Below the pieces are notes generated by a model, which saw only the letters and a list, made by a program, of their open reading frames with translations, did no database searches and was not told the DNA's origin. DNA of 64,000 nucleotides, from NCBI GenBank assembly GCA_026770705.1, contig JANJGN010000121.1, positions 496,001-560,000 on the forward strand, read 5' to 3'. This document shows, piece by piece, positions 13,141 to 60,419 of this stretch. Numbering within the stretch: the first letter of the stretch is position 1; every line of letters starts with the position of its first letter. The translations under genes and the position numbers were made by a program. The DNA comes from Isurus oxyrinchus. Its lineage: Eukaryota.

Positions 13141-13253
13141 CTCTGATACGAAGGTGATTCTAACCAGGACACTGACCAGTTTGATTACAACTTAACACAA
13201 CATCACACGTTATTTGTCCGCACTGACTGACCAGATTGTTGCTTTACAAAGCT

Positions 13254-13393
13254 TCAAACAGTCTGTCGACTTCCTTTCACTGTTTGTCTCTCCCAGACAC
13301 AGACTCCAGTGATAGTGATAACCACAGCCACAAGGAATATCACAGCTCGTATTCCCAGGATCAGGATCACATGCAGAATCTCTCCTCCACTGT
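13254..13393 (-). CDS. G2 terminal TM exon with intramembrane Arg and short tail (activating type)
   Basis: ttctctag acceptor; phase-1 translation (D)SGGEILHVILILGIRAVIFLVAVVITITGVCVWERQTVKGSRQTV*. Near-identical copy at 59548. Confidence 0.88.
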
Positions 13394-21340: not shown

Positions 21341-22399
21341 TTTCGATTCAATGGGCAGTCAAAGCATGTGTCTGATTTTGGACATGGAACCCAATTCTGT
21401 CCTCAGGACATTGATAGAGGGAGAGACCAGATACAGATCAATGCAGGAGGATTATTTATTTTCCCAATCTTTGATCCAAGCATCTCATCAAACACAGAGC
21501 GGAACCAGGATCGAGTATGTTGGTCTCTGTAATCTGTAACACATCGCACAGTCCACCCGTCCACTCAGCCATCAGGATGGATGCTAATTGTACTCTCCAA
21601 GTGTGAAAGACTAAAATGATGGTTTATTGCAGCTCTGTCTCATTCTGTTATCAAAGCTGTCTCATCCATCCATCACATATTGAAGAAGATAAACCTGCAA
21701 CCAAATTTTCACATCATAATTTCCTATGTTCATTGGCTATATCAATGTAAACATGTCACGTTGTACTGATGAACTCCCATCATTGCTGGCACTGTAGCAC
21801 AAGTTATCCTCTAAGCTGCAGAGAATTTCTCAAATCTCCAATCAAATTGCTTCCCTGTTTCCCAGATTGTTGTTCGTTTCGCTGTTTAACGATGAAGTGT
21901 AAAATCCAAATATATTTCTGAAAATACTTTTGACTACAAAATGCTGAGTAAATTTTAACAATCTCCTCTGCTCCAATTATCCACCGATGCTGCATTTCCT
22001 GAAGTCTACACTGGCTGATGAATATTCTGTAAACACTGACAGACAGGAAGCTGAATAACAGAATGAAAATTAACTCATAATCACGGACACGGGATTGAAT
22101 TTGTCCGTTCTGTCCTGGTACATCATCGAACGATATCTAAAGACATTTACAATCAGAATGGAGAGAAGGATGTTTCCAACAGTGAGGGACAATTCTGAAG
22201 GAGGATGTTCGAATTGAAACCCACAGACAATCATCCTGGATAGATCATTCCGAAGAAATTCCATCAGATTGTAACAAGAGGTTTAAATCTATTTCCTGGG
22301 AGTGAGTTCCTGTGGATATTAGGAAGGTAAATTGGAGTTTTGAATGATTCTCCCATTCTGTATTCTCCCCACACTGTGTGTGTCTCATTCTTGCTCAGT

Positions 22400-22516
22400 T
22401 TATAAATTCCCATAAACAGAATCCTTGGCAAAATCACAGTTTGCGTAAAGATCATCATCTGTATCAGGATTGACTCCGCGGTTAGGTTTCATTTCCAGAA
22501 CCTTTTCATCTTTCTT
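22400..22516 (-). CDS. G3 terminal cytoplasmic exon KKDEKVLEMKPNRGVNPDTDDDLYANCDFAKDSVYGNL*
   Basis: tttctattacag acceptor, phase 0, two Tyr motifs, TAA stop; AATAAA candidate at 21623-21628. Not in the ORF track. Confidence 0.82.
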   Translation of the reverse strand, partial: KKDEKVLEMKPNRGVNPDTDDDLYANCDFAKDSVYGNL

Positions 22517-22614
22517 CTGTAATAGAAACAGAAATGATCAGAGTGACAATCAGAGTGATCAGTGTTTAGTATTATTGATCCAAATCGAAAATTCCACCCA
22601 CAATAGATACATTA

Positions 22615-24580
22615 ATTATTGATACTGAACAGGGTTTGATTATTGATTCTGAACAGTGTTTGATTATTGATTGTGAACAGTGTTTGATTATTGATACTGA
22701 ACGGGGTTTGATTACTGATTCTGAACGGGGTTTGATTATTGATACTGAACGGAGTTTGATTATTGATTCTGAACGGGGTTTGATTATTGATTCTGAACGA
22801 GGTTTGAATATTGACACTGAATGGGGTTTGATTATTGATCCTGAACAGGGTTTGATTATTGATCCTGAAAGGGGTTTGATTATTGATACAGAACAGTGTT
22901 TGATTATTGATACTGAACAGGGTTTGATTATTGATTCTGAACAGTGTTTGATTATTGATACTGAACGGGGTTTGATTATTGATTCTGAACAGGGTTTGAT
23001 TATTGATTCTGAATGGGGTTTGATTATTGATACTGAACGGGGTTTGATTATGGATTCTGAATGGGGTTTGATTATTGATTCTGAATGGGGTTTGATTATT
23101 GATCCTGAACAGGGTTTGATTATTGATTCTGAAAGGGGTTTGATTATTGATTCTGAAAGGGGTTTGATTATGGATTCTGAACGGGGTTTGATTATTGATC
23201 CTGAACAGGGTTTGATTATTGATCCTGAAAGGGGTTTGATTATGGATTCTGAAAGGGGTTTGATTATGGATTCTGAACGGGGTTTGATTATTGATACTGA
23301 ACGGGGTTTGATTATTGATTCTGAAAGGGGTTTGATTATTGATACTGAACGGGGTTTGATTATTGATTCTGAACGGCGTTTGATTATTGATACTGAACGG
23401 GGTTTGATTATTGATTCTGAATGGCGTTTGATTATTGATACTGAACGGGGTTTGATTATTGACATTGAACGGGGTTTGATTATTGATTCTAAATGGTGTT
23501 TGATTATTGATTCTAAACGTTGTTTGATTATTGAACCTGAATGGAGTTTGATTATTGATTCTGAACTGGGGTTGATTATTGATACTTAACGGGGTTTGAT
23601 TATTGACATTGAACGGGGTTTGATTATTGATTCTAAATGGTGTTTGATTATTGATTCTAAACGGTGTTTGATTATTGAATCTGAATGGAGTTTGATTATT
23701 GATACTGAACAGTGTTTGATTATTGATTCTGAACAGTGTTTGATTACTGATTCTGAAAGGGGGTTGATTATTGATACTGAACGGTGTTTGATTATTGATT
23801 CCGAACGGGGTTTGATTATTAATTCTGAACGGGGTTTGATTATTGATACTGAATGGTGTTTGATTATTGATTCTGAATGGGGTTTGATTATTGATTCTAA
23901 ACGGTGTTTGATTATTGAACCTGAACGGAGTTTGATTATTGATACTGAACAGGGTTTGATTATTGATTCTGAAAGGGGGTTGATTATTGATACTGAACGG
24001 GGTTTGATTATTGATTCTGAACGGGGTTTGATTATAGATACTGAATGGTGTTTGATTATTGATTCTGAATGGGGTTTGATTATTGATACTGAACGGGGTT
24101 TGTTTATTAATTCTGAACGGGGTTTGATTATTGATTCTGAACGGGTTTTGATTATTGATACTGAACGGGGTTTGATTATTGATTCTAAACGATGTTTGAT
24201 TATTGAACCTGAACGGAGTTTGATTATTGATTCTGAACAGTGTTTGATTATTGATTCTGAAAGGGGGTTGATTTTTGATACTGAACGGGGTTTGATTATT
24301 AATTCTGAATGGGGTTTGATTATTGATACTGAATGATGTTTGATTATTGATTCTGAACGGGGTTTGATTATTGATACTGAATGGGTTTTGATTATTGATT
24401 CTGAACGGGGTTTGATTATTGATTCTGAACGGGGTTTGAGTATTGATTCTGAACGGGGTTTGATTATTGATACTGAACGGGGTTTGATTATTGATACTGA
24501 ACGGGGTGTGATTATTGATTCTGAACGGGGTTTGATTATTGATACTGATCGGGGTTTGATTATTGATTCTGAACGGTGTT
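22615..24580. repeat. 24-bp minisatellite (ttgattattgattctgaacggggt), roughly 80 copies, in the last intron of G3
   Basis: Directly visible. Confidence 0.97.
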
Positions 24581-24709
24581 GGGTGTGAGTTTGGTTGGGT
24601 TTGGGAGTGACTGTATAAAACATTGCAGATACAGGACTGGAGCAGCCATATCAATAACCAGGGTACTGGAGCAGCTGAGAGGCTGGGGATCCTGTGGTGT
24701 GTGACTCAC

Positions 24710-24814
24710 CTGATTCCTCAAAGCCCAACCACGCTCACAGTTTTCATAAACAGGACCTCGATGTTCATCAGCACGATGGTTCGATTTGATTCCTGCTTTC
24801 ACCTCGCCTCTCTT
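24710..24814 (-). CDS. G3 cytoplasmic exon KRGEVKAGIKSNHRADEHRGPVYENCERGWALRNQ (105 nt, phase 0-0)
   Basis: ctctattacag acceptor, CAG|gtgagt donor, YEN motif, paralogous to the terminal exon. Confidence 0.78.
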
Positions 24815-25325
24815 CTGTAATAGAGATGGAAATGGACAGAGTGACAATCAACATGATGTGTATTCGGTGTTGGGTTTGATTACTGGGGAGAGAGTTCCAG
24901 ATTTCCACTCCCCTTTGTGTGAAGAAGTGCTTCCTGACATCACCCCTGAATGGCCTGGCTCCAATCTGAAGTTCCAGCCCCCTTGTTCTGGACTCCACCC
25001 GACCCCCACCACCCACCCCCACCCGAGGGAATAGCTTCTCTCTATCGACCCTATCGAGTGTTTAATCAGTTTGAACCCCTCAATTAGATCCCTCCTTAAT
25101 CTTCTAGACCCGAGGGAATATAATCGTAGACTGTGTGTAACCTGTCTGCATAATTTAACCAGAAAGATGTTCTGTACAACAAACCTGAGCTTCACACCCA
25201 GATCTCAATAATCAGTAGAAATCTTTCAAAGGCATCAATCATTGGAATCTGTCTTTATAAAGTCACAACATCAACAAAGGATGGTGTTGGTGGTGGAAAT
25301 GAATTCCAATCGTTCCGTTACTTAC

Positions 25326-25410
25326 CCAGGACCTGTCCGACTGCTCGCCTGAGGAGGAACTGCCCACACGCTCTGCTTGGGCTGAATGACCTCTTCCTGT
25401 GCTGCTCCCT
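25326..25410 (-). CDS. G3 juxtamembrane exon (85 nt, phase 2-0), (K)GSSTGRGHSAQAERVGSSSGEQSDRSW
   Basis: ctaat..acacag acceptor, gtaagt donor. Bridges the phase-2 end of the TM exon to the phase-0 cytoplasmic exon with no stop. Confidence 0.68.
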
Positions 25411-25699
25411 CTGTGTATTTAATTAGAAAGGGTGGATGTGTCACTGTGAGTCAAATCAGGAATTGGGGAACAATTGTGAAAACCCTTTCACTGAAATGTA
25501 GGGCCTTAGTGTTGTGTTGTAAGCAAACTGTTAACCCTTTGTGTCCTGACTCTGTGACGTGATTCCTGTGTAAAGCTGAGCAGTCGTTGAGCGACTTTCA
25601 ATTCACTGCTCAGTCCAGATGTTGAGGTGGATCTTCTGAAGGAGCAGATGTTGCTCAGCACTCCTAAAAAATGTCAGATACTGAACATTGTGTAAGAGG

Positions 25700-25910
25700 A
25701 TGAGAGAGAAAATGAGAAGGAGAGCATTAGTGGAGACTGGAGAGAGAGTGAATGAGAGAGAGAATGAGAAGGAGAGCATTAGTGGAGATAAGAGAGAGAG
25801 TGAATGAGAGAGAGAATGAGAAGGCGTGCATTAGTGGAGATTGGAGAGAGAGTGAATGAGAGAGAGAATGAGAAGGAGAGCATTAGTGGAGATAAGAGGG
25901 AGTGAATGAA
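25700..25910. repeat. GA-rich ~50-bp tandem repeat, about 4 copies
   Basis: gagagaatgagaaggagagcattagtggaga... units. Confidence 0.75.
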
Positions 25911-26218
25911 ACATGGAAAATGGAAAGAGATTGCATTCACTAACAAAAGAAAGGTTTTCATTTATATAGCACCTTTCACATCCTCAGGAGGTCACAATGT
26001 ATTTTATGGTCTGGGTCAACACTGCCAGTTACAGGACTGAGTTGTGAAACAGTGAAAGGTGGATGAGATGTTAAACAGTAGGTGAACATCAAAACTCTTC
26101 AGGGGCTGTGAAGGGTTTTGGATGGTAAAAGGTGCTATTGAAATGCAAGTTCTTTCTATAAGGAGAGAAGGTTGAAGAAAAAATGTTTGAAATCAACCAA
26201 TTAAACCTTCGCACTTAC

Positions 26219-26315
26219 TTTCTCACACACTTGAAAATGAAGAATCCACTCAGTCCAACATTCAAACAGATTCCAGCTCCAAGCAATCCTGCTTTCCATT
26301 CATTGGAATCTCGCC
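26219..26315 (-). CDS. G3 transmembrane exon (97 nt, phase 1-2), (R)RDSNEWKAGLLGAGICLNVGLSGFFIFKCVR
   Basis: ttttacag/gtaagt; 20-aa uncharged Gly-rich segment followed by basic residues, similar in style to CD33-type TM exons. Confidence 0.82.
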
Positions 26316-42631: not shown

Positions 42632-42874
42632 TCACTTGAATCTGATCTGTGCGTATTCCGTCTCCTCTTCCCTGTGGACAGACCCATCACCACTGGGCAC
42701 CCTGAAGACTTGGGGATTGGCGTAGAGAAGGTCGGCGGGATTGTCAGGGTTCCCATGTCCAGCATCGCCTCCCACTGCACCTTCAGAGAGACCCCGGGGA
42801 GCTGGGGTCTCCCCCTCACTAGTTGTGTCTCTGGTTGCGTTCCGGGGCTCAGTAATCAGCACGTTCTGTTTACC
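42632..42874 (-). CDS. Terminal cytoplasmic exon T1 (phase 0), GKQNVLITEPR...DLLYANP...EETEYAQIRFK*
   Basis: tttctctgtag acceptor; distal ITSM TEYAQI as in CD33-type Siglec tails; AATAAA at ~42061-42066. No parent ectodomain found in the window. Confidence 0.75.
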   Translation of the reverse strand, partial: GKQNVLITEPRNATRDTTSEGETPAPRGLSEGAVGGDAGHGNPDNPADLLYANPQVFRVPSGDGSVHREEETEYAQIRFK

Positions 42875-43019
42875 CTACAGAGAAATGGAAACAGAAGACA
42901 TCCTCACATCATTTACTGGCACTGATAGGGTTAAATTATTGTGCAGCCTCGTTACTGTCAGTCGTGGCTCAGTGGGTTTAACTCTCCTTCCCATGTCTTA
43001 TGATAGAAACCACCTAAGG

Positions 43020-43205
43020 CATGTGCAGCACTCTCTCAGTACTGACCCTCCGACAGTGCAGTGCTCCCTCGGTACTGACCCTCCGGCAGTGCAGTACTCC
43101 CTCAGTACTGACCCTCCGGCAGTGCAGTACTCCCTCAGTACTGACCCTCCGACAATGTAGCACTCCCTCAGTACTGACCCTCTGTCAGTCTCGCACTCCC
43201 TCGGT
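43020..43205. repeat. 33-bp tandem array
   Basis: Visible; paralogous arrays at 46005-46290 and 48955-49730. Confidence 0.88.
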
Positions 43206-43331
43206 AATGGCTCTGGCGAGTGACGGCTTGGATTCTGCACACAGGTGCCTGGTGTGAGGCTCAATAACATGCACCTTGTAATCAGAGAGAGGATGAGAGA
43301 GAGGGATAGAGATGAAGGGACAGAGACAGAG

Positions 43332-44089
43332 TGTTATGAATCTATTAATGTATGTAATGTAATTGGAAATTGTCTATTTAGACAGAAGTTCAGTCTGTGG
43401 GTATGTTTGTGTGTGTTTTAATTGGACTAAAGCCAGCCAGTCTGGGTACTTTGATGTATCATAGTTTTGAGATGTAAACAAAGAGGTAAAGTGGTAATTT
43501 GCATTTTTAAATAGAACATTCAATGTCGGGGGGTGAAATCTTAAACCAATCAACGTTTATATTACTAATAAAATTGAGACTGTGAAAGGGGATTTATTGT
43601 TAAAAGAGGTGTAGTTCAAAGGTCCTGATGATACAATGAGAATTTACATTCAAATAGAAGCGCTGGGTATAACTTGAGCAGTTTTGTGTGTGCAGAGCAG
43701 AGGCTTGTAACATCAAAGCAGCTGTAAGCCTGCACCTGTCTGCAAAGGAACCAAAGTGAAAGGAACCTCATTTGGAATTTGTGAGGTGAAAATGCTTTGC
43801 CTGGAATCTGCTTAAAGTCTATGGGTTGTCTTAGAGGAGATTAGTTTAAGAATTTGTTAAAAAGTTATGATAATACTAGTTTGTAGCCATGTGCATATGT
43901 TTAACTTGTGTAAATTAATAAATGTCTCAAGTAGTTTGATATAAAACCATCTTGAGAACTGGTGGTCTTATTCCTGAATTTAAAGCTGCATCTCACACAT
44001 TCCATTGGGAAATATAGGTTATGACAGTTGTTTAAAGTTTCCCTCTGGGATTTTAAACAACAGCCTTTACCAGTTGCTGTGTCATAACA
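43332..44089 (+). mobile_element. Solo LTR (~760 bp)
   Basis: Perfect 8-bp inverted termini TGTTATGA...TCATAACA, near-TSD cagag/gagag, internal AATAAA; duplicate at 46417-47174. Confidence 0.75.
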
Positions 44090-44224
44090 GAGAGACAGCA
44101 TGGTACTGAACCATTGCTGACTCCACAGGTACAAATCAGTGGGTAACTGGGCTGGGAATCTGGGACATGTGTTGTCTACACACTGAGATTGAAGCTTTGG
44201 AGTGAGTGTAAACAGTTCCTGTAC

Positions 44225-44306
44225 CTGGTGCTTCACAGAGAGTGGACTGGGGGTCAATGCAATGTCTCTGGTCCCTGAAACTCTCTCCTCCATCGCTGTC
44301 TTTCTC
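44225..44306 (-). CDS. Juxtamembrane exon J1 (82 nt, phase 2-0), RKTAMEERVSGTRDIALTPSPLSVKHQ
   Basis: ttgcag/gtacag; phases fit TM (phase 2) to terminal exon (phase 0). Confidence 0.65.
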
Positions 44307-45234
44307 CTGCAATAACACAATATCACACTGTGGTTATCATATAGCAGAGAGTCAGTGCAGCACAGACACAGAGCACACTGTAACCTTACACCAATGACTC
44401 GACTGTCTCTTTAAATCAGTTCTGCACAAAGCACAGAATTAAGAAGCTCGACACCATCCAGGACAAAGCAGCTCGATTGATCGACACCCCATCCCCCACA
44501 TTAAACATTCACTCCCTCCACCATGAACACACAGTGGCAGCAGTGTGTGTACCATCTACAAGATGCACTGCAGCAACTCAGCAAGGCTCCTTCAACAGCA
44601 CCTTCCAAACCCACGACCTCTACCATCTAGAAGGACAAGGGCAGCAGACACATGGGAACACCACCACCTGGAAGTTCCCCTCCAAGTCACTCACCATCCT
44701 GACTTGGAAATATATCACTTCACTGTCACTGGGTCAAAACCCTGGATCTCCCTCTCTAACAGCACTGTGGGTGTACCTACACCACATGGACTGCAGCGGG
44801 TCAAGAAGGCAGCTCACCACCACCTTCTCAAGGGGCAATTAGAGATGGGCAATTAATAGCGGCCTCACCAGTGACAGCCACATTCGATGAAAGAATTTAA
44901 AATCTCACAGCTCAGGAGGAAGCCACTCAGCCCATCGTGCCTGTGCTGGCCCTTTGAAAAAACTGACCAATTAGTCCCACTACCCAGACTGTTCAATCAT
45001 TCCTGATGGTTATAACCACCACTGTCGATGGACCCTCTGATTTACCATTCTGAATCGAGGCAGATCAACTTTCCTGCAACAACTTGCATTTATATGGCAC
45101 ACTTAATGTAATAAACTGTCCCAAATCTCTTCAGGGGATTTTTACCTACATATAAATCCATCTCTGAGACACATAATGAGCTATTAGGGACAGGTGACAA
45201 AAAGCTGATTTCACAAAGCCAGTTAATAAGGACC

Positions 45235-45386
45235 NNNNNNNNNNNNNNNNNNNNNNNNNNNNNNNNNNNNNNNNNNNNNNNNNNNNNNNNNNNNNNNNNN
45301 NNNNNNNNNNNNNNNNNNNNNNNNNNNNNNNNNNNNNNNNNNNNNNNNNNNNNNNNNNNNNNNNNNNNNNNNNNNNNNNNNNNNNN
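45235..45386. other. Assembly gap, probably a GA microsatellite
   Basis: Ns; the paralogous site at 42310-42440 is a (GA/CA)n tract. Confidence 0.95.
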
Positions 45387-45612
45387 GAGAGACAGAGTAC
45401 GAGAGAGAGAGACACTGAATCTCTGTCCCCAATGACTCAGCATCAAGTCGTCACTGGGGAAACATTTCATTCCAAACCACACCAACCACAGACCCATTCA
45501 GTCCCTTCCTCCCTCTCTCCCCCTCTCCCCCAGTGGGTTGTCTCATGTTCCCAAGAATCTTCATCCCTGCCACCACCCACACACCTCCTGACCCCCTCTC
45601 CCCGTTTCACAC

Positions 45613-45861
45613 TCAGTTTCGCTTGAATCTGATCTGTGCGTATTCCGTCTGCTCTTCCCTGTGGACAGACCCATCACCACTGGTCACCCTGAAGACTTGG
45701 GGATTGGTGTAGAGAAGCTCGTTGGGATTGTCAGGGTTCCCATGTCCAGCATCGCCTCCCACTGCACATTCAGAGAGACCCCGGGGAGCTGGGGTCTCCC
45801 CCTCACTAGTTGTGTCTCTGGTTGTGTTCCGGGGCTCAGTAATCAGCACGTTCTGTTTACC
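45613..45861 (-). CDS. Terminal cytoplasmic exon T2, ...ELLYTNP...EQTEYAQIRFKRN*
   Basis: Intact paralog of T1. Confidence 0.72.
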   Translation of the reverse strand, partial: GKQNVLITEPRNTTRDTTSEGETPAPRGLSECAVGGDAGHGNPDNPNELLYTNPQVFRVTSGDGSVHREEQTEYAQIRFKRN

Positions 45862-47309
45862 CTACAGAGAAATGGAAACAGAAGACATCCTCACATCATT
45901 TACTGGCACTGATAGGGTTAAATTATTGTGCAGCCTGGTTAGTGTCAGTCGTGGGTCAGTGGGTTTAAACCTCTCTCACATGTCTTATGAAAGAAAACAC
46001 CTATGGCAGTGCAGTGCTCCCTCAGTACTGACCCTTCGATAGTGCAGCACTTCCTCAATGCTGACCATCCAACAGTGCAGCACTCCCTCAGTACTGACCC
46101 TCCAACAGTGCAGCGCTCCCTCAGTACTGACCCTCCAACAGTGCAGCGCTCCCTCAGTACTGACCCTCCGACAGTACAGGTCTTCCTCAGTACTGACCCT
46201 CTGACAGTGCAGCACTCCCTCAGTACTGACCCTCTGACAGTGCAGCACTCCCTCAGTACTGACCCTCTGTCAGTCTCGCACTCCCTCGGTAATGGCTCTG
46301 GCGAGTGTCGGCTTGGATTCTGCACTCAAGTGCCTGGTGTGAGGCTCAATAACATGAATCTTGTAATCAGAGAGAGGATGAGAGAGAGAGAGAGAGATGA
46401 AGGGTCAGAGACAGAGCGTTATGAATCTATTAATGTATGTATTGTAATTGGAAATTGTCTTTTTAAACAGAGGTTTAGTCTGTGGGTGTGTGTGTGTGTG
46501 TTTTAATTGGAATAAAGCCAGCCGGTCTGGGTACTTTGATGTATAGTAGTTTTGAGATGTAAACAAAGAGGTAAAGAGGCATATTGCATTTTTAAAAGGA
46601 GGATTCAAAGCCTGGGAGTGAATTCTTAAACCAATCAATGTTTATATTACTAATAAAATTGATACTATGAAACGGGATTTATTGTTAGAAGAGATGGAGA
46701 TCAAAGGTCCTGATGATACAATGAGAATTTACTTACAAAGAGAAGCACTGGGTATAACTTGAGCAGTTTTGTGTGTGCAGAGCAGAGGCTTGTAACATCA
46801 AAGCAGCTGTAAGCCTACACCTGTCTGCAAAAGAACCAAAGTGAAAGGAACCTCATTTGGAATTTGTGAGGTGAAAATGCTTTGCTTGGAATCTGCTTAA
46901 AGTCTATGGGTTGTCTTAGAGGACGTTAGTTTGGGAATTTGTTAAAAAGTTATGATAGTACTAGATTGTAGCCATGTGCATATGATTAACTTGTGAAAAT
47001 TAATAAATGTCTCATGTAGTTTGATATAAACCCATCTCAAGAACTGATGGTGTTATTCCTGAATTTAGAGCTGCATCTCAAACATTCCACTGGGAAATAT
47101 AGGTTATGACACTTGTTTAAAGTTTCCCTCTGGGATTTTAAACAACAGCCTTTAGCAGTCGCTGTGTCATAACAGAGAGACAGCATGATACTGAACCATT
47201 GCTGACTCCACAGGTACAAATCAGTGGGTAACTGGGCAGGGAATCTGGGACACATGTTGTCTACACACTGAGATTGAAGCTTTGGAGTGAGTGTAAACAG
47301 CTCCTGTAC

Positions 47310-47391
47310 CTGGTGCTTCACAGAGAGTGGACTGGGAGTCAAGGCAATGTCACTGGTCCCTGAAACTCTCTCCTCCATCGCTGTCTTTCTC
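47310..47391 (-). CDS. Juxtamembrane exon J2 (82 nt)
   Basis: Intact paralog of J1. Confidence 0.62.
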
Positions 47392-48564
47392 CTGTAATAA
47401 CACAATATCACACTGTGGTTATCATATAGCAGAGAGTCAGTGTAGCACAGACACAGAGCCCACTGTAATCTTAGACCAACGACTGGGACTGTCTCTTTAA
47501 ATCAGTTCTATACAAAGCACAGAATCAAGAAGCTTGACACCATCCAGGACAAAGCAGCCCGATTGATCTACACCCCATCCACCACATTAAACATTCACTC
47601 CCTCCACAACGAACACACAGTGGAAGCAGTGTGTGTACCATCTACAAGATGCACTGCAGCAACTCAGCAAGGCTCCTTCAACAGCACCTTCCAAACCCAC
47701 GACCTCTACCATCTAGAAGGACAAGGGCAGCAGACACATGGGAACACCACCACCTGGAAGTTCCCCTCCAAGTCACTCACCATCCTGACTTGGAAATATA
47801 TCATCGTTCCTTCACTGTCGCTGGGTCAAAATCCTGGAACTCCCTCCCTAACAGCACTGTGGGTGTACCTACACCACATGGACTGCAGCGGGTCAAGAAG
47901 GCTGATCACCACCACCTTCTCAAGGGCAATTAGGGATGGGCATTAATGCTGGCATCACCAGTGACAGCCACATTCGATGTAAGAATTAAAAATCTCACAG
48001 CACAATGTATTTATTGGGATCCTCCTGCACACACGCCCTGTCGAAGGACCCTTTGTGGTTCCATTGTTAATCGAAGCAGATCAGACTTACTGCAACTACT
48101 TGCATTTATATAGCACCTTTAATGTAGCAAAATGTCCCAAGGCTCATCCGGGAATTGTTAGTCACATCTTCACCTGACTCTGAGGCACATGAGGAGATAT
48201 AAGGGACAGGAGACCAACAGCTGAGTCAACAAAGTCAGTTATTAACGGGCATCTTAAAGGAGGAGCTGGAGATAGAGAATGAGTGACAGACACAGAAAGA
48301 AAGACAAAGAGAGGGAGAGAGAGAACAAGAGAGCGAGAGAGAGAGAGAAAGAGACAGAGAGAGACAGTGAATCTCTATCCCCAGTGGCTCAGCATCCAGT
48401 CCTCTCTGGAGAAGCATTTCATTCCAAACCACACCAACCGCAGCCCAATCCCATCCCTTCCTCCCTCTCTCCCCCTCTCCCCCAGTGGGTTGTTTCCTGT
48501 TCCCAGGAATCTCAATCACTACCCCCAGCCCCACACCTCCTCACTCCCACTCCCCATTTCTCAT

Positions 48565-48813
48565 TCAGTTATGCTCGAACCTGATCTGTGCGTATTCCGT
48601 CTCCTCTTCCCTGTGGACAGACCCATCATCACTGGACATCCTCAATACTTGGGGATTGGCGTAGAGAAGGCCGTCGGGATTGTCGATGTGCCAATGTCCA
48701 GCATCGCCTCCCAATGCACCTTCAGAGAGACCCCGGGGAGCTGGGGTCTCCCCCTCGCTAGTTGTGTCTCTGGTTGTGTTCCGGGGCTCAGAAATCAGCA
48801 CGTTCTGTTTACC
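48565..48813 (-). CDS. Terminal cytoplasmic exon T3, ...GLLYANP...EETEYAQIRFEHN*
   Basis: Intact paralog of T1; no J exon upstream. Confidence 0.7.
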   Translation of the reverse strand, partial: GKQNVLISEPRNTTRDTTSEGETPAPRGLSEGALGGDAGHWHIDNPDGLLYANPQVLRMSSDDGSVHREEETEYAQIRFEHN

Positions 48814-48954: not shown

Positions 48955-49730
48955 ATGGCAGTGCAATGCTCCCTCAGTACTAACCCCCCCGACTGTGCAG
49001 CACATCCTCAATAGTGACCCTCTGTCAGTCTCACACTCCCTCATTACTGACCCTCTGTCAGTCTTGCACTCCCTCTGTACAGTGCAGCACTTCCTTAGCA
49101 CTGACCCTCTGACAGTGCAGCACTTCCTTAGCACTGACCCTCTGACAGTGCAGCACTCACTCAGTACTGACCCTCCATCAGTGCAGCACTCCCTCAGTAC
49201 TGACCCTCTGACAGTGCAGCACTCCCTCACTACTGACCCTCCAACAGTGCAGCACTGCTTTAGCACTGACCCTCTGACAGTGCAGCACTCACTCAGTACT
49301 GACCCTCCAACAGAGCAGCACTCCCTTAGCCCTGACCCTCTGACAGTGCAGCACTCCCTCACTACTGACCCTCCAACAATGCAGCACTGCCTTAGCACTG
49401 ACCCTCTGACAGTGCAGCACTCACTCAGTACTGACCCTCCAACAGTGCAGCACTCCCTTAGCCCTGACCCTCTGACAGTGCAGCACTCCCTCAGTACTGA
49501 CCCTCCAACAGTGCAGCACTCCCTTTTCACTGACCCTCTGACAGTGCAGCACTCCCTCAGTACTGACCCTGCAACAGTGCAGCACTTCCTTAGCACTGAC
49601 CCTCTGATGGTGCAGCACTCCCACATTACTGACCCTCTGACAGTGCAGCACTCACTCAGTACTGACCCCTCCAACATTGCAGCATACCCTCTGCACTGAC
49701 CCTCTGACAGTGCAGCACTCCCTCAGTAAT
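48955..49730. repeat. 33-bp tandem array, about 23 units, joining the tail cluster to the G4 upstream region
   Basis: Visible units. Confidence 0.92.
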
Positions 49731-49950
49731 GATACCACAGATTGTCGACATGGACCATATGGCCAGAGACCTGTATTGGGAACTCTTATCGCTTGAGTTT
49801 CAGCCTCCGAGGTGAGGGGAAGGGGTCTAATCCCACAGAGCCAATGGAGAAGCTTCATGACTACAGCTGCCCAAATATGAGCTGACAGATCACACATGGT
49901 AAACGTTTTGCTGAGAGCACAAAACATCCTCAATCTTCTCACTGGTTACC

Positions 49951-50006: not shown

Positions 50007-50091
50007 AGGGAGCAGCACAGGAAGAGGTCATTCAGCCCAAGCAGAGCGTGTGGGCAGTTCCTCCCCAGGCGAGCAGTCGGACAGGTCCTGG
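50007..50091 (+). other. G4 85-nt upstream exon
   Basis: GG|gtaagt donor at 50092. Confidence 0.7.
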
Positions 50092-50541
50092 GTAAGTAAC
50101 GGAACGATTGGAATTCACTTCCACCACCAACACCGTCCTTTGTTGATGTTGTGACTTTATAAAGACAGATTCCAATGATTGATGCCTTTGAAAGATTTCT
50201 ACTGATTATTGAGATCTGGGTGTGAGGCTCAAGTCTGTTGTACAGAACATCTTTCTAGCTCAAGGGCTGAGGGAAGTGCAGAGACATGAGCTTTGGGACA
50301 TCCTGAGGTGGTGAAAGGTGCTATAGAAATGCAAACCCTTCATTGTTTTTCTTTGTTAAAGTCTTGTGACTCTCTGCAGAGCACCTATCATCCCACAGAT
50401 AATCAAATTAGTCAGTGAAGACATTGTCTAAAAGCAGTTCTGATCTCTCGAGAGCTGTCGGACAAGAGGTGAGGTCTCGTTAACTCATTTCTCTTTCACA
50501 GCTTGAGAGTCAGAAGCTTATGAAATACCTGGGAGTGGACA

Positions 50542-50581
50542 ATGATCGGGAAATCTTACTTCCTCCTGTCACTTCTCCAAG
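50542..50581 (+). CDS. G4 leader exon CDS, MIGKSYFLLSLLQ
   Basis: Acceptor at 50501, ATG, G|gtaat. Confidence 0.87.
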
Positions 50582-56505: not shown

Positions 56506-56567
56506 AATATCGGGTTCAGTGGATCCACAAACCATTCAGAGTTAAATATTGAGATTTCTCTCCCCAG

Positions 56568-56933
56568 CTGAACCCTCGCAAGAGTGGAAAGGTGACACTC
56601 CACGAGAGGTGACAGTGCAGGAAGGTTCCTGTGTACAGATTCCATGTCATTACAGTTATCCATCGTGTCTGGAAAACCAACCGTGAGGTGGAGTCTGGTT
56701 TAATAATGAGGAATGGAGAACATCGTCTATAGCCTTTCACTCCAAGGATCACAGTCACGAGTTACCACGGTTCCACCATCGGACCCGGCTGTCTGGAGAC
56801 CTGAAAGATGGCGACTGTTCCCTGATTATAAACAACATCAGACGGGAAGATGCGGGTCCTTATTTTTTCAGAATAGAATTTGACAATGGTCCGAGCCATA
56901 ACTATTACCCTGTAACCCAGCTTCACGTTTCTG
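56568..56933 (+). pseudogene. G4 second V exon, inactivated
   Basis: CGA>TGA at 56684-56686 and donor GT>AT at 56934. Confidence 0.9.
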
Positions 56934-57661
56934 ATAAGTGCTGTGTTATAATTACTCAACAATTCACATTCAACACTCAATGGGAAATAACACAAACTGT
57001 GACGTTTACGTATTAACACAAAACACAGCTTATTATAATACACTGTCTGATTCTCAATAACCTGGTGATCGCTTCCAATTCACTCCTAAAGCAACCTCTA
57101 ATACTCACTTTAATATCAATGATTAAATGTATTGACTGTGTCCATCAATGTTATCAGGTTATCCACTCCTATCGATCTCTCTAATCCTGTCTCGAAGTCT
57201 GACTTAGCGACAGAAGAAAGATTCACATTTCTGTAGCACCTTTCACCACCTCAGCATGGACCAAATCACTTCACAGCCAATGAGCTGATTCCTGAATTGT
57301 AGTTACTATTGTAATGTGGGAAACACAGCAACCAATTTGCACACAGCAAGCTCCCACAAATTGCAAAGTAAAAAATGGCCCAGATCGCTGAGGGACTGAT
57401 GGGTTAGTGCACCCCAAACTCTGGTCTGCTCCACCACCCTCACCCACTATTATCAGTTCAAGTGTCTCGGAGTGAACGTGTATTAAGCTGAGAGACAGAA
57501 ACACCAAAGTCTCAAAGCAGGAAATTCTCTCCTAATCATTGTAACCTCTCAGATCTGATATCATCCTTGTAAAAGTGCTTTTTCTTGTGGGACTGTGATT
57601 TCTATTTGAACTGATGCTTCACGTTATATTTGTCTAAAAGGATCCATTCTCTGTCTGTTAG

Positions 57662-57958
57662 ATTTCACAGATAAACCCACGATATTCCCTGCTGAAATTA
57701 TTGCAGGAAAGCGTGTGGATGTAAGCTGCACCTTCAACACAACGTGGAATGGAACAGCAGCACCTGTCTTAACCTGGGACACTCCCACTGACGTACCTGG
57801 ATCACTCTCAAACACTGTAACTCAGCATGGTGTCACTCTGACCTATACTTCTGTTCTGACCCTGATCCCATCACTCAAACACCACGGACACACTCTCAGC
57901 TGCAGAGTGAGATATCCATCTGTTTCATCGGAGCGGACCCTCGTACTAACTGTGCAAG
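57662..57958 (+). CDS. G4 first C2 exon (297 nt), interdomain Cys>Trp
   Basis: gttag/gtaagt; CTFNTTWNG. Confidence 0.9.
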
Positions 57959-58281
57959 GTAAGTACAGACACCCTTCATTCTACATCAGCACTCCCTCAG
58001 CGCTGACCCTCTGACAGTGCAGCCCGTTCTCAGTGTCCACATTCTCAGACCTCTCAAAGTGCTTCACAGTCGATAGAAGTTAACTGATCTTTATTTGATT
58101 GTTGCTGAATGAAGAGACAAGCTGTCTAAACTTTACATCTCACACACATTATTTTCCATGGCAACACCTCCTCCAATCAGAGACCACTTGCTGATTAACC
58201 AGCACTCTCTTCCCTTTAAATATAAATTGTTGTTCACTTTCTGTTGGTAAACCTGCAATCTGTCTTGTTGAGTCCGGTCCT

Positions 58282-59547: not shown

Positions 59548-59687
59548 ACAGTGGAGGAGAGATTCTGCACGTGATCCTGATCCTGGGAATACGAGCTGTG
59601 ATATTCCTTGTGGCTGTGGTTATCACTATCGCTGGAGTCTGTGTCTGGGAGAGACAAACAGTGAAAGGAAGTCGACAGACTGTTTGA
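59548..59687 (+). CDS. G4 terminal TM exon with Arg (CGA 59592-59594) and short tail
   Basis: (D)SGGEILHVILILGIRAVIFLVAVVITIAGVCVWERQTVKGSRQTV*; AATAAA at 60071-60076. Confidence 0.88.
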
Positions 59688-60419
59688 AGCTTTGTACAGC
59701 AACAATCTGGTCAGTCAGTGCGGACAAATAACGTGTGATGTTGTGTTAAGTTGTAATGAAACTGGTCAGTGTCCTGGTTAGAATCATCTCCGTATCATCG
59801 AGTCATTCCAGCAATGGAGGAGGACATTTGGCCCATTGAGTCTATGCTGTCTCTCTGTAAAGCAATCCACTCAGTCCCATCCCCCGCTCTAACCCCGTAT
59901 CCCTGCAAATTTATTTCCAATTTCCGTCCAATTTCCTTTTGAAATTGTTCATCGAATAGGAATGAACAGAAATGTGACGTCGCTAAACTCTGTTCTCTGA
60001 TTAGAATGAGCTTTCTGAATGCTGCACCTTTTTCATGCTGCGATAGATTGTAAGAAGCATTTGGCTTATGAATAAAATTACATTGATTAACTCAAGTGAT
60101 TAAAATGCTCAGCCTGTTCTGTAGATATTTAAAGATTAAAATTCTTGTTTTGCTGCAAAATACTTGGCTCAAAGACATTACTTCCTGTTGTCACGTTTTC
60201 CAATCAGATGAATTCCTCTGTCCATCTTTATAATAGAAATTTCCAATGTAAACATGTCACATTGTAGCTGCACACACTTGCCAGTGGCTGGTGTGATACC
60301 AAAGCTGTCTTGCTGCAGAGAAACAGCGAGAAATATTCCTGTTGTGTGCATGAACTTCATGTTAGCATGAGACACAGGCATCAGATGAAATTTTGTGCAA
60401 TTTGTACAATGTTCTTTAG

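Follow-up and report, generated by a model that had tools for sequence, protein, structure and literature searches.

Why does a stretch of shark DNA carry three well-kept copies of a signalling tail with no receptor in front of them? The stretch is a 64,000-nucleotide window of the Isurus oxyrinchus genome (4.98 Gb; the window is G000:C121:496001-560000), in which five exons of Siglec type follow one another on the minus strand as T3-J2-T2-J1-T1, T being cytoplasmic-tail exons and J juxtamembrane or linker exons. This five-exon block sits inside a large shark Siglec cluster, and the named proteins nearest to its T/J tail belong to white shark and basking shark (16 hits). We propose, with a probability of about 0.72, that a Siglec-type receptor gene lost its front half and that the block is what remains, its tail end, amplified together with the surrounding sequence, one younger sub-family coming to lie under hepcidin; the window copy would be a headless remnant, most likely a passenger without a receptor role. 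The features on which the argument turns are the following:

48565..48813, minus strand: T3, Siglec cytoplasmic-tail exon of the internal type, 82 aa, acceptor intact
48575..48583, minus strand: internal donor of T3, phase-2 CAG/GTTCGA, cut between 48581 and 48580
47310..47391, minus strand: J2, juxtamembrane/linker exon, phase 2 to 0
45613..45861, minus strand: T2, terminal-type tail exon, 82 aa, reading AG/AT and hence without an internal donor
44225..44306, minus strand: J1, second linker exon
42632..42874, minus strand: T1, terminal-type tail exon, 80 aa
49071..49732, no strand assigned: 33-bp tandem array at the breakpoint, between the J-T intron on the T3 side and the 5' flank of gene G4
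46007..46291, no strand assigned: 33-bp array inside the J2-T2 intron, where such arrays natively lie
43023..43189, no strand assigned: 33-bp array inside the J1-T1 intron

A sequence-only reading of the window had described these five exons as intact orphans, and their AG acceptors, open frames and both tyrosines (in T3, the motifs LLYANP and TEYAQI) were indeed found, as was the repeat unit, put at ~3 kb and measured at ~3.0 kb. The units diverge by 3-9% (identities of 91.2% for T3/T2, 92.5% for T3/T1, 96.7% for T2/T1, 96.3% for J and 92.8% for the unique J-T intron). The J exons, with GTACAG donors, enter in phase 2 and leave in phase 0, the phase of the T exons, which agrees with the earlier remark that a phase-2 transmembrane (TM) exon could be joined to them. 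That reading had seen no TM or immunoglobulin (Ig) exon upstream before the oppositely oriented gene G4; a hydropathy scan and relaxed tblastn of the minus strand from 48814 to the window end found no TM, Ig or J exon either. T3 has no Pfam match, and the tail is short and disordered-looking. An AATAAA stands 565 nt past the T1 stop; neither AATAAA nor ATTAAA was found within 1.5 kb past T2, a flank that partly reads N.

Two things had been missed: the internal donor of T3 and the genome-wide recurrence of the structure. The donor lies five codons before the stop and joins T3 in frame to J, and T2 and T1 have no donor of this kind. T3 is a composite exon by which tail units are chained, and T2 and T1 are of the terminal type; the proposal that the cassettes are alternative last exons is mistaken as regards T3, since intact paralogs use such exons internally for chaining. 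The longest chain that the window could yield is T3-J-T2 or T3-J-T1. Of 6 orphan arrays viewed complete, 2 have the third unit, J1-T1; T1 groups not with T2 but next to TM-linked last exons, and this unit may therefore have arrived by unequal crossover.

The intact paralogs indicate what such exons do. Neighbouring genes have the order leader-V-(C)n-TMc-J-T, prolonged in some to TMc-J-T-J-T or TMc-(J-T)3. Another J follows in 9 of 31 TM-linked T exons; eight of these nine internal exons, which are related to one another and are not independent cases, end AG/GTTCGA and the remaining one AG/GTTCAA, while GTTCGA is found in none of the 22 last TM-linked T exons (11 read GTTCCA, 11 lack GT). RNA contigs of runs X1, X2 and X3 join 48581 to 47391 across a GT..AG intron (depths of 5054, 500 and 376), a splice from a T3-type internal donor to J; what splices into 47391 was a point on which the sequence-only reading had asked for RNA. 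The joint is absent from run X4, and its joined form has no match as DNA in the assembly. Through the internal donor, the chained tail stays open to the last exon in 8/8 multi-unit TM-linked genes, with four tyrosine motifs in seven genes and six in one; the T-J joint, YAQIR-R/K-KT, recurs in 6 of the 16 named shark proteins, three per species (automatic NCBI models). Altogether, the chained tail of the intact paralogs is well supported. Contig cover is low past the T3 stop compared with the T3-J joint, a hint that the internal donor is preferred, contig depth being no measure by which to rank usage. A donor concealed just ahead of the stop lets shark Siglecs chain J-T units into longer tails with 2, 4 or 6 tyrosines, which would be a testable dial on signal strength.

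When the genome was queried with T3, 406 candidates came up at first look, and 40 of them, on 8 contigs, were scored. Thirty-six copies on 8 contigs, the window included, reach at least 96.8% identity (96.8-100%), and none of the 36 has a J or TM exon directly upstream; the four next-best hits (95%) are TM-linked internal exons. Two arrangements account for nearly all orphan copies. In class A (13 copies, including the window) the upstream sequence comes from the 5' flank of a G4-type gene in opposite orientation. In class B (22 copies) the 57-nt exon 2 of a hepcidin gene is located 2.0-2.2 kb upstream of the T3-like exon. One further copy has the class B flank, i.e., hepcidin intron 2, running to the contig end.

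The junctions point to how these arrangements arose. In the window, similarity to a G1-type 5' flank and similarity to the normal J-T intron meet inside the array 49071-49732, and debris from an inversion, one of three explanations offered earlier, fits best. The class A junction recurs in 13 copies on 7 contigs, and the 9 other class A copies first compared have flanks 96-98% alike with arrays of differing length. A break at ~49 kb that falls within a tandem repeat of a highly duplicated region could be an assembly error, as the sequence-only reading had warned; this recurrence, together with a class B junction seen 22 times and matched by an RNA splice, makes that explanation extremely unlikely. 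Upstream of class B copies the sequence follows hepcidin intron 2 (97.5% over 1,840 nt) as far as a 33-bp array, beyond which it is J-T intron; both junctions map into 33-bp arrays. The arrays flanking G4 are direct repeats ~18 kb apart, and the likely partner in a deletion is:

G000:C121:563124-563382, same orientation: array in hepcidin intron 2, beyond the window end

In the tree, the orphans stand on one side against 9 TM-linked internal T exons (86/96), and class B stands on one side within the orphans (90/87, not starred). A single clade for class A is rejected (p-AU 0.030), and T3 diversity is 0.003 in class B versus 0.020 in class A. From the nested class B branch, the non-clade of class A, the lower diversity of class B and the direct repeats, we infer that class B derived from class A by deletion.

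We propose the following model. Its starting point is what the intact paralogs show, namely genes of TM-(J-T)n form whose internal T exons use a donor just before the stop, so that tails hold 4 or 6 tyrosines. Crossing over of the 33-bp array in a J-T intron with the 5' flank array of an inverted block would have placed T3 head-to-head with G4 and removed the leader, Ig, TM and first J exons, giving class A (the window and 12 others). An ~18-kb deletion between the intron 2 array and the array before T3 would have taken out hepcidin exon 3 and G4, giving class B. Splices from hepcidin exon 2 to T and from a T3-type exon to J are seen at the level of the family, without assignment to one locus. 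The cluster has many other fragments that lack a head or a tail.

The same arrays have another conceivable use: the block could be a reservoir of donor tails, from which conversion or inversion supplies other Siglec genes. The 33-bp arrays do occur in many introns and in both orientations, identical tail cassettes stand behind different heads, and the grouping of T1 beside TM-linked last exons would suit such traffic. Nevertheless, the T3 clade contains 0 of 31 sampled TM-linked T exons, recombination between the direct repeats around G4 would delete G4 and not supply a tail, and occasional exchange needs no dedicated reservoir. This idea, also raised by the sequence-only reading, found no support, and we hold it to be very unlikely.

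If the window copy is a headless remnant, what gene lies upstream of it? A gene starting beyond 64 kb, with G4 nested antisense in its intron, had been suggested. Its geometry was right and annotation past the window end did find a same-strand gene, but this gene is a hepcidin with its own last exon, not a receptor:

G000:C121:567419-567327, minus strand: hepcidin exon 1, signal-peptide exon, consensus of 8 loose-end contigs
G000:C121:565012-564956, minus strand: hepcidin exon 2, 57 nt, 5 kb past the window end, with deep X1 cover on a class B locus
G000:C121:562658-562542, minus strand: hepcidin exon 3, to which the consensus of 13 loose-end contigs leads from the exon 2 donor
L001:2542-2658, strand not stated: example of the hepcidin exon 3 copies interleaved with Siglec genes

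The gene has the three exons of a hepcidin, and its exon 3 carries an RxxR site and 8 Cys and matches PF06446 at 30.4 bits against a curated cut-off of 27. The minus-strand order at the window locus is hepcidin exons 1-2-3, antisense G4, T3; exon 3 ends 17.7 kb before T3 here, and by coordinates it lies ~16.5-18.5 kb upstream on the same strand in 11/13 class A copies. Three other accounts of the upstream sequence were rejected: exon 2 as a chance exon-like stretch, RNA loose ends tying it to hepcidin exons 1 and 3; exon 2 as part of the divergent V' gene upstream, since V' genes that are intact do not have it; and, as host gene, the V' located 10 kb past the window end, which lacks a TM and is interrupted by an LTR-element-like insertion.

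Hepcidin itself is expanded in this genome. Exon 3 has 91 matches among 94 candidates, none of the 91 with an internal stop; 89 lie on cluster contigs at 76-100% (C52, C71, C121, C150, C189, C323, C385, C546, C557, C646, C724, C838, C926 and C1184) and 2 on C34 at 57%. Exon 2 has 121 candidates in the genome, and a protein search with hepcidin exon 3 returned no candidate, which is weak evidence. Variants in exon 3 (10 copies sampled) are 16 amino-acid-changing and 2 silent, those in exon 1 (31 copies sampled) one amino-acid-changing and two silent, and exon 2 shows zero variants in 32 copies; the pattern hints that the mature peptide is under diversifying selection. The exon 1 donor has changed from GT to TT in 7/22 hybrid loci and in 4/11 hepcidin loci in long blocks; many hepcidin copies may be null through this change. 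Human HAMP presumably lies next to MAG and CD22, and our search turned up no supporting paper.

In run X1, one contig joins hepcidin exon 2 to a T acceptor across a 2,098-nt GT..AG intron (depth 4352, short side 26 letters) and another joins exon 2 to a cryptic acceptor in the intron (844); the T-to-J loose end is also present on the class B locus. As DNA, the hepcidin-T joined form was found 0 times in 1.59 Mb examined. Runs X7 and X12 show no cover of hepcidin exon 2 or T at 96%, and X9 leaves exon 2 uncovered with only a trace on T. The earlier question of what splices to the T acceptor thus has a partial answer, namely hepcidin exon 2 joined to a T type, at a locus that cannot be assigned. 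The splice is most simply explained by class B loci because G4 and exon 3 are absent there, and a hybrid transcript, seen in one contig of one run, is likely, being backed by the matching arrangement in 22 genomic loci.

The T3-J2-T2 of the window could alternatively act as another 3' end of the intact hepcidin 20 kb away, by skipping exon 3 and the antisense G4. Hepcidin exon 2 is of phase 0 and on the same strand as T3 with sites intact, the same spacing to exon 3 recurs in most class A copies, and the RNA joint could come from such a locus. However, exon 3 is intact at the window locus, and the consensus of loose ends at the exon 2 donor leads to it; class B loci account for the joint with a 2.1-kb intron; and the one long T3 contig among those listed (X3, 48582-48744) differs from the window at 1 letter, which would fit the common N47 rather than the D47 of the window. 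The T3 allele of the window is set apart by its letters at 48792 and 48675. We consider this route improbable and keep to the headless remnant for the window copy.

What would the hybrid be? Five exons are visible in 21 class B loci. A full set of sites together with a 237-aa frame is present in 12 of them, another has the full set but stops at 209, and in the remaining 8 a site is broken. The predicted 237-aa product has a signal peptide, 4 Tyr, 2 N-glycosylation sequons and 1 Cys, without a TM and without the hepcidin peptide; exon 3 being absent, it includes no mature Cys-rich peptide. Such a protein would be secreted and, because it has a signal peptide and no TM, its tyrosines would be beyond cytoplasmic kinases, probably leaving it unable to signal. 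Repeat-mediated deletion would then have made what is likely a multi-copy hepcidin-Siglec hybrid, a gene birth or loss caught early.

Class A diversity is 0.020 in T3, 0.022 in J, 0.035 in T2 and 0.006-0.028 in introns, and class B diversity is 0.003, 0.018, 0.015 and 0.002-0.016, respectively; exon diversity is not below intron diversity in either class. Pooled orphan variants comprise 43 nonsynonymous (N) and 21 synonymous (S) changes and 2 stops versus 46.1, 18.1 and 1.8 expected (p 0.41). TM-linked T exons have N/S of ~1.3 (84 N, 26 S; 29 of 31 exons, 2 dropped for a stop or frameshift), and 3/25 are broken. The proposed dN/dS comparison among T1-T3 was therefore set aside, the TM-linked paralogs also being at ~1.3. 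The Tyr of the distal motif shows silent changes only in 29 TM-linked and 71 orphan exons. Intact frames are expected of young copies, and intactness is no evidence of use, because the 3-9% between units exceeds the 1-3% among orphan copies and stops number 2 against 1.8 expected.

A hybrid that is a selected secreted glycoprotein, with class B amplified because of it, would gain from the youth of class B, which at 23 copies outnumbers class A, and from the 237-aa frame with its 2 sequons in 12 of 21 loci, the hepcidin-T splice visible in RNA and the unvaried exon 2 in 32 copies. It is weakened by the loci themselves (exon 1 donor TT in 7/22, an AA acceptor in 1, exon 1 absent in 1, stops in 2), by class B exon diversity that is not below that of introns, by the lack of a hepcidin start in the 16 named proteins with this tail, and by the amplification of whole blocks, in which broken V genes also reach ~100 copies; we find it decidedly doubtful. 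A bolder version would have the hepcidin promoter and signal peptide capture the Siglec tail in a ~23-gene family secreting a 237-aa Ser/Thr/Pro-rich glycoprotein, e.g., an infection-induced sialylated decoy, with ~90 hepcidins and hundreds of Siglec units shuffled via one 33-bp repeat and tail strength set by J-T chaining; taken as a whole, it is unlikely.

Several points weigh against our account of headless remnants and a class B under hepcidin. Runs X1-X3 are a single sample whose RNA nature is a guess and whose species may not be that of the window. For the hepcidin-T joint there is a single contig, whose short side spans 26 letters, from one of the four runs examined, and the joint cannot be assigned to a locus since the first 21 nt are common to most T types; its source may be a class A locus that skips exon 3. 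Support for the class B branch is below the starred level, and copy counts may include unpurged haplotypes. As for decay, neutral orphan exons are consistent with the data but not proven, TM-linked T exons giving the same ~1.3, and constraint could be reflected in the orphan J exons (3 N, 5 S), in the invariance of exon 2 and in the 12/21 class B loci with a full frame.

Around the block, 1.264 Mb of contiguous sequence on four contigs holds 68 V exons, 15 divergent V' exons, 39 T exons and 10 hepcidin exon 3 copies; its TM exons comprise 21 with an Arg and a short tail, 21 TMc and 11 TMb. The nearest neighbour of the block is G4:

50012..50581, plus strand: G4 5' end, facing away from T3, with a probable non-coding first exon ending at 50091
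50502-50581, plus strand: G4 leader exon, MIGKSYFLLSLLQ; the same leader opens NCBI models P0009-P0011
54471..59690, plus strand: G4, activating-type Siglec, antisense between hepcidin exon 3 and T3

G4 has an open V1 with the F-strand Arg, half a C2, and a TM exon with an Arg and a short tail; V1-C1-TM is likely still in frame. Within it, at 56566-57960 (plus strand), V2 has a stop and a lost donor, and C1, which is open, has a Cys-to-Trp change. TM exons of the activating type, with an intramembrane Arg and a short tail, stand at 13200-13392 (minus strand) and 59549-59741 (plus strand). For the neighbour G3, V1 has Siglec-5, -7, -8, MAG and CD33 as best hits (E 7e-16 to 2e-12), its YFFRIE aligns to YFFRVE of Siglec-5, and Pfam V-set and Ig_CD22 are found in both G3 and G4, as are C2-set_2 and Ig_3/I-set domains and TM exons, i.e., C2-set domains with a single TM. 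We take the F-strand Arg of both V-sets to be the essential sialic-acid-binding Arg. The conserved stretch before V (map label L) was rejected as the leader, which lies in segment X.

G3 also has, at 22395-26315 (minus strand), a tail of a second type, TMb-Jb-Tb, whose tyrosines number three (VYENC, LYANC and VYGNL); its last intron holds a 2-kb 24-bp repeat, and its TMb-Jb intron contains, at 25154-25480, an antisense copy of what is presumed to be the Siglec first-exon segment. Further out, G000:C121:577698-596200 (minus strand) is a TMc-J-T gene with 13 tandem C2 exons, the C2 count among paralogs ranging from 0 to 13. In a divergent V' (L002:138-437, ~100 copies), which in the blocks viewed usually stands upstream of hepcidin, an LTR-element-like insertion interrupts the gene just before the second Cys; ~17 copies seem to be free of the cut, and the ones examined lead on to C2-TMb or TMc tails. 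Further fragments comprise Tb exons standing alone, C2-TMc-J-T genes without a head and one gene broken off after TMc, located on the sequence map at:

G000:C121:405.9k, 621.6-627.0k and 715.9k; C52:3897.2k and 3953.5-3959.5k (strand not stated)

How does all this compare with known systems? For comparative immunology, three things are unexpected: the chained tails, the hepcidin expansion and the hepcidin-Siglec hybrid. A literature search found no paper on any of them, most subscription journals lying outside its cover; the supplements of genome papers may hold such counts. Inhibitory Siglecs have a membrane-proximal ITIM (immunoreceptor tyrosine-based inhibitory motif; I/V/L/S-x-Y-x-x-L/V) and a distal T-x-Y-x-x-I/V motif. 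The distal site of T1-T3, TEYAQI, is ITIM-like and of the related switch-motif (ITSM-like) form, and the proximal one reads LLY(A/T)NP, with Pro at +3 and so outside the consensus; an FQKN-type paralog class has L-x-YANI. No ectodomain or TM exon lies upstream of the tail in the window, or directly upstream of it in any of the 36 copies. By its make-up, the block is not an inhibitory Siglec receptor as it stands, though derived from one, and is itself probably debris. The NCBI Siglec/MAG-like models of white and basking shark (P0001-P0005 and P0008) align to J/T at 63-86% identity over 16 hits and share the in-frame T-to-J joint and two tyrosine pairs (one pair in P0008); unlike the block, these automatic models keep the TM exon, and none starts with hepcidin sequence.

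T3 resembles the composite terminal exons known from intronic polyadenylation (PMC5928244, PMC10960005) in being internal or last depending on the use of a donor inside the exon; here, donor use adds signalling-tail repeat units and does not cause TM loss or truncation. The hepcidin has the familiar plan of PF06446 (three exons, a signal and pro region, RxxR and 8 Cys), and it is the mature-peptide exon that varies. In teleosts, Hamp2 has expanded to six genes in large yellow croaker, the highest number seen as of 2018 according to PMC6240063; that is up to six copies versus 89 mature-peptide exons here, which are apparently diversifying and are interspersed with Siglecs. A sub-family of loci, in addition, has exon 3 replaced by Siglec tail exons.

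The closest parallel is found among the CD33-related Siglecs, which, like the shark cluster, are clustered and fast-changing receptors with V-set and C2-set domains and either inhibitory tails or a charged TM residue (definitions after PMC6288428). Their paired receptors Siglec-5 and Siglec-14 include the SIGLEC14/5 fusion-deletion allele, as given in PMC4042635, in which, as proposed for class B, recombination between similar segments deletes an activating gene and puts a coding region under the promoter of its neighbour. Unlike SIGLEC14/5, the shark case involves hundreds of units, an unrelated partner in hepcidin, an outcome that is not a receptor, a joined part without ectodomain or TM, and breakpoints in 33-bp intronic repeats.

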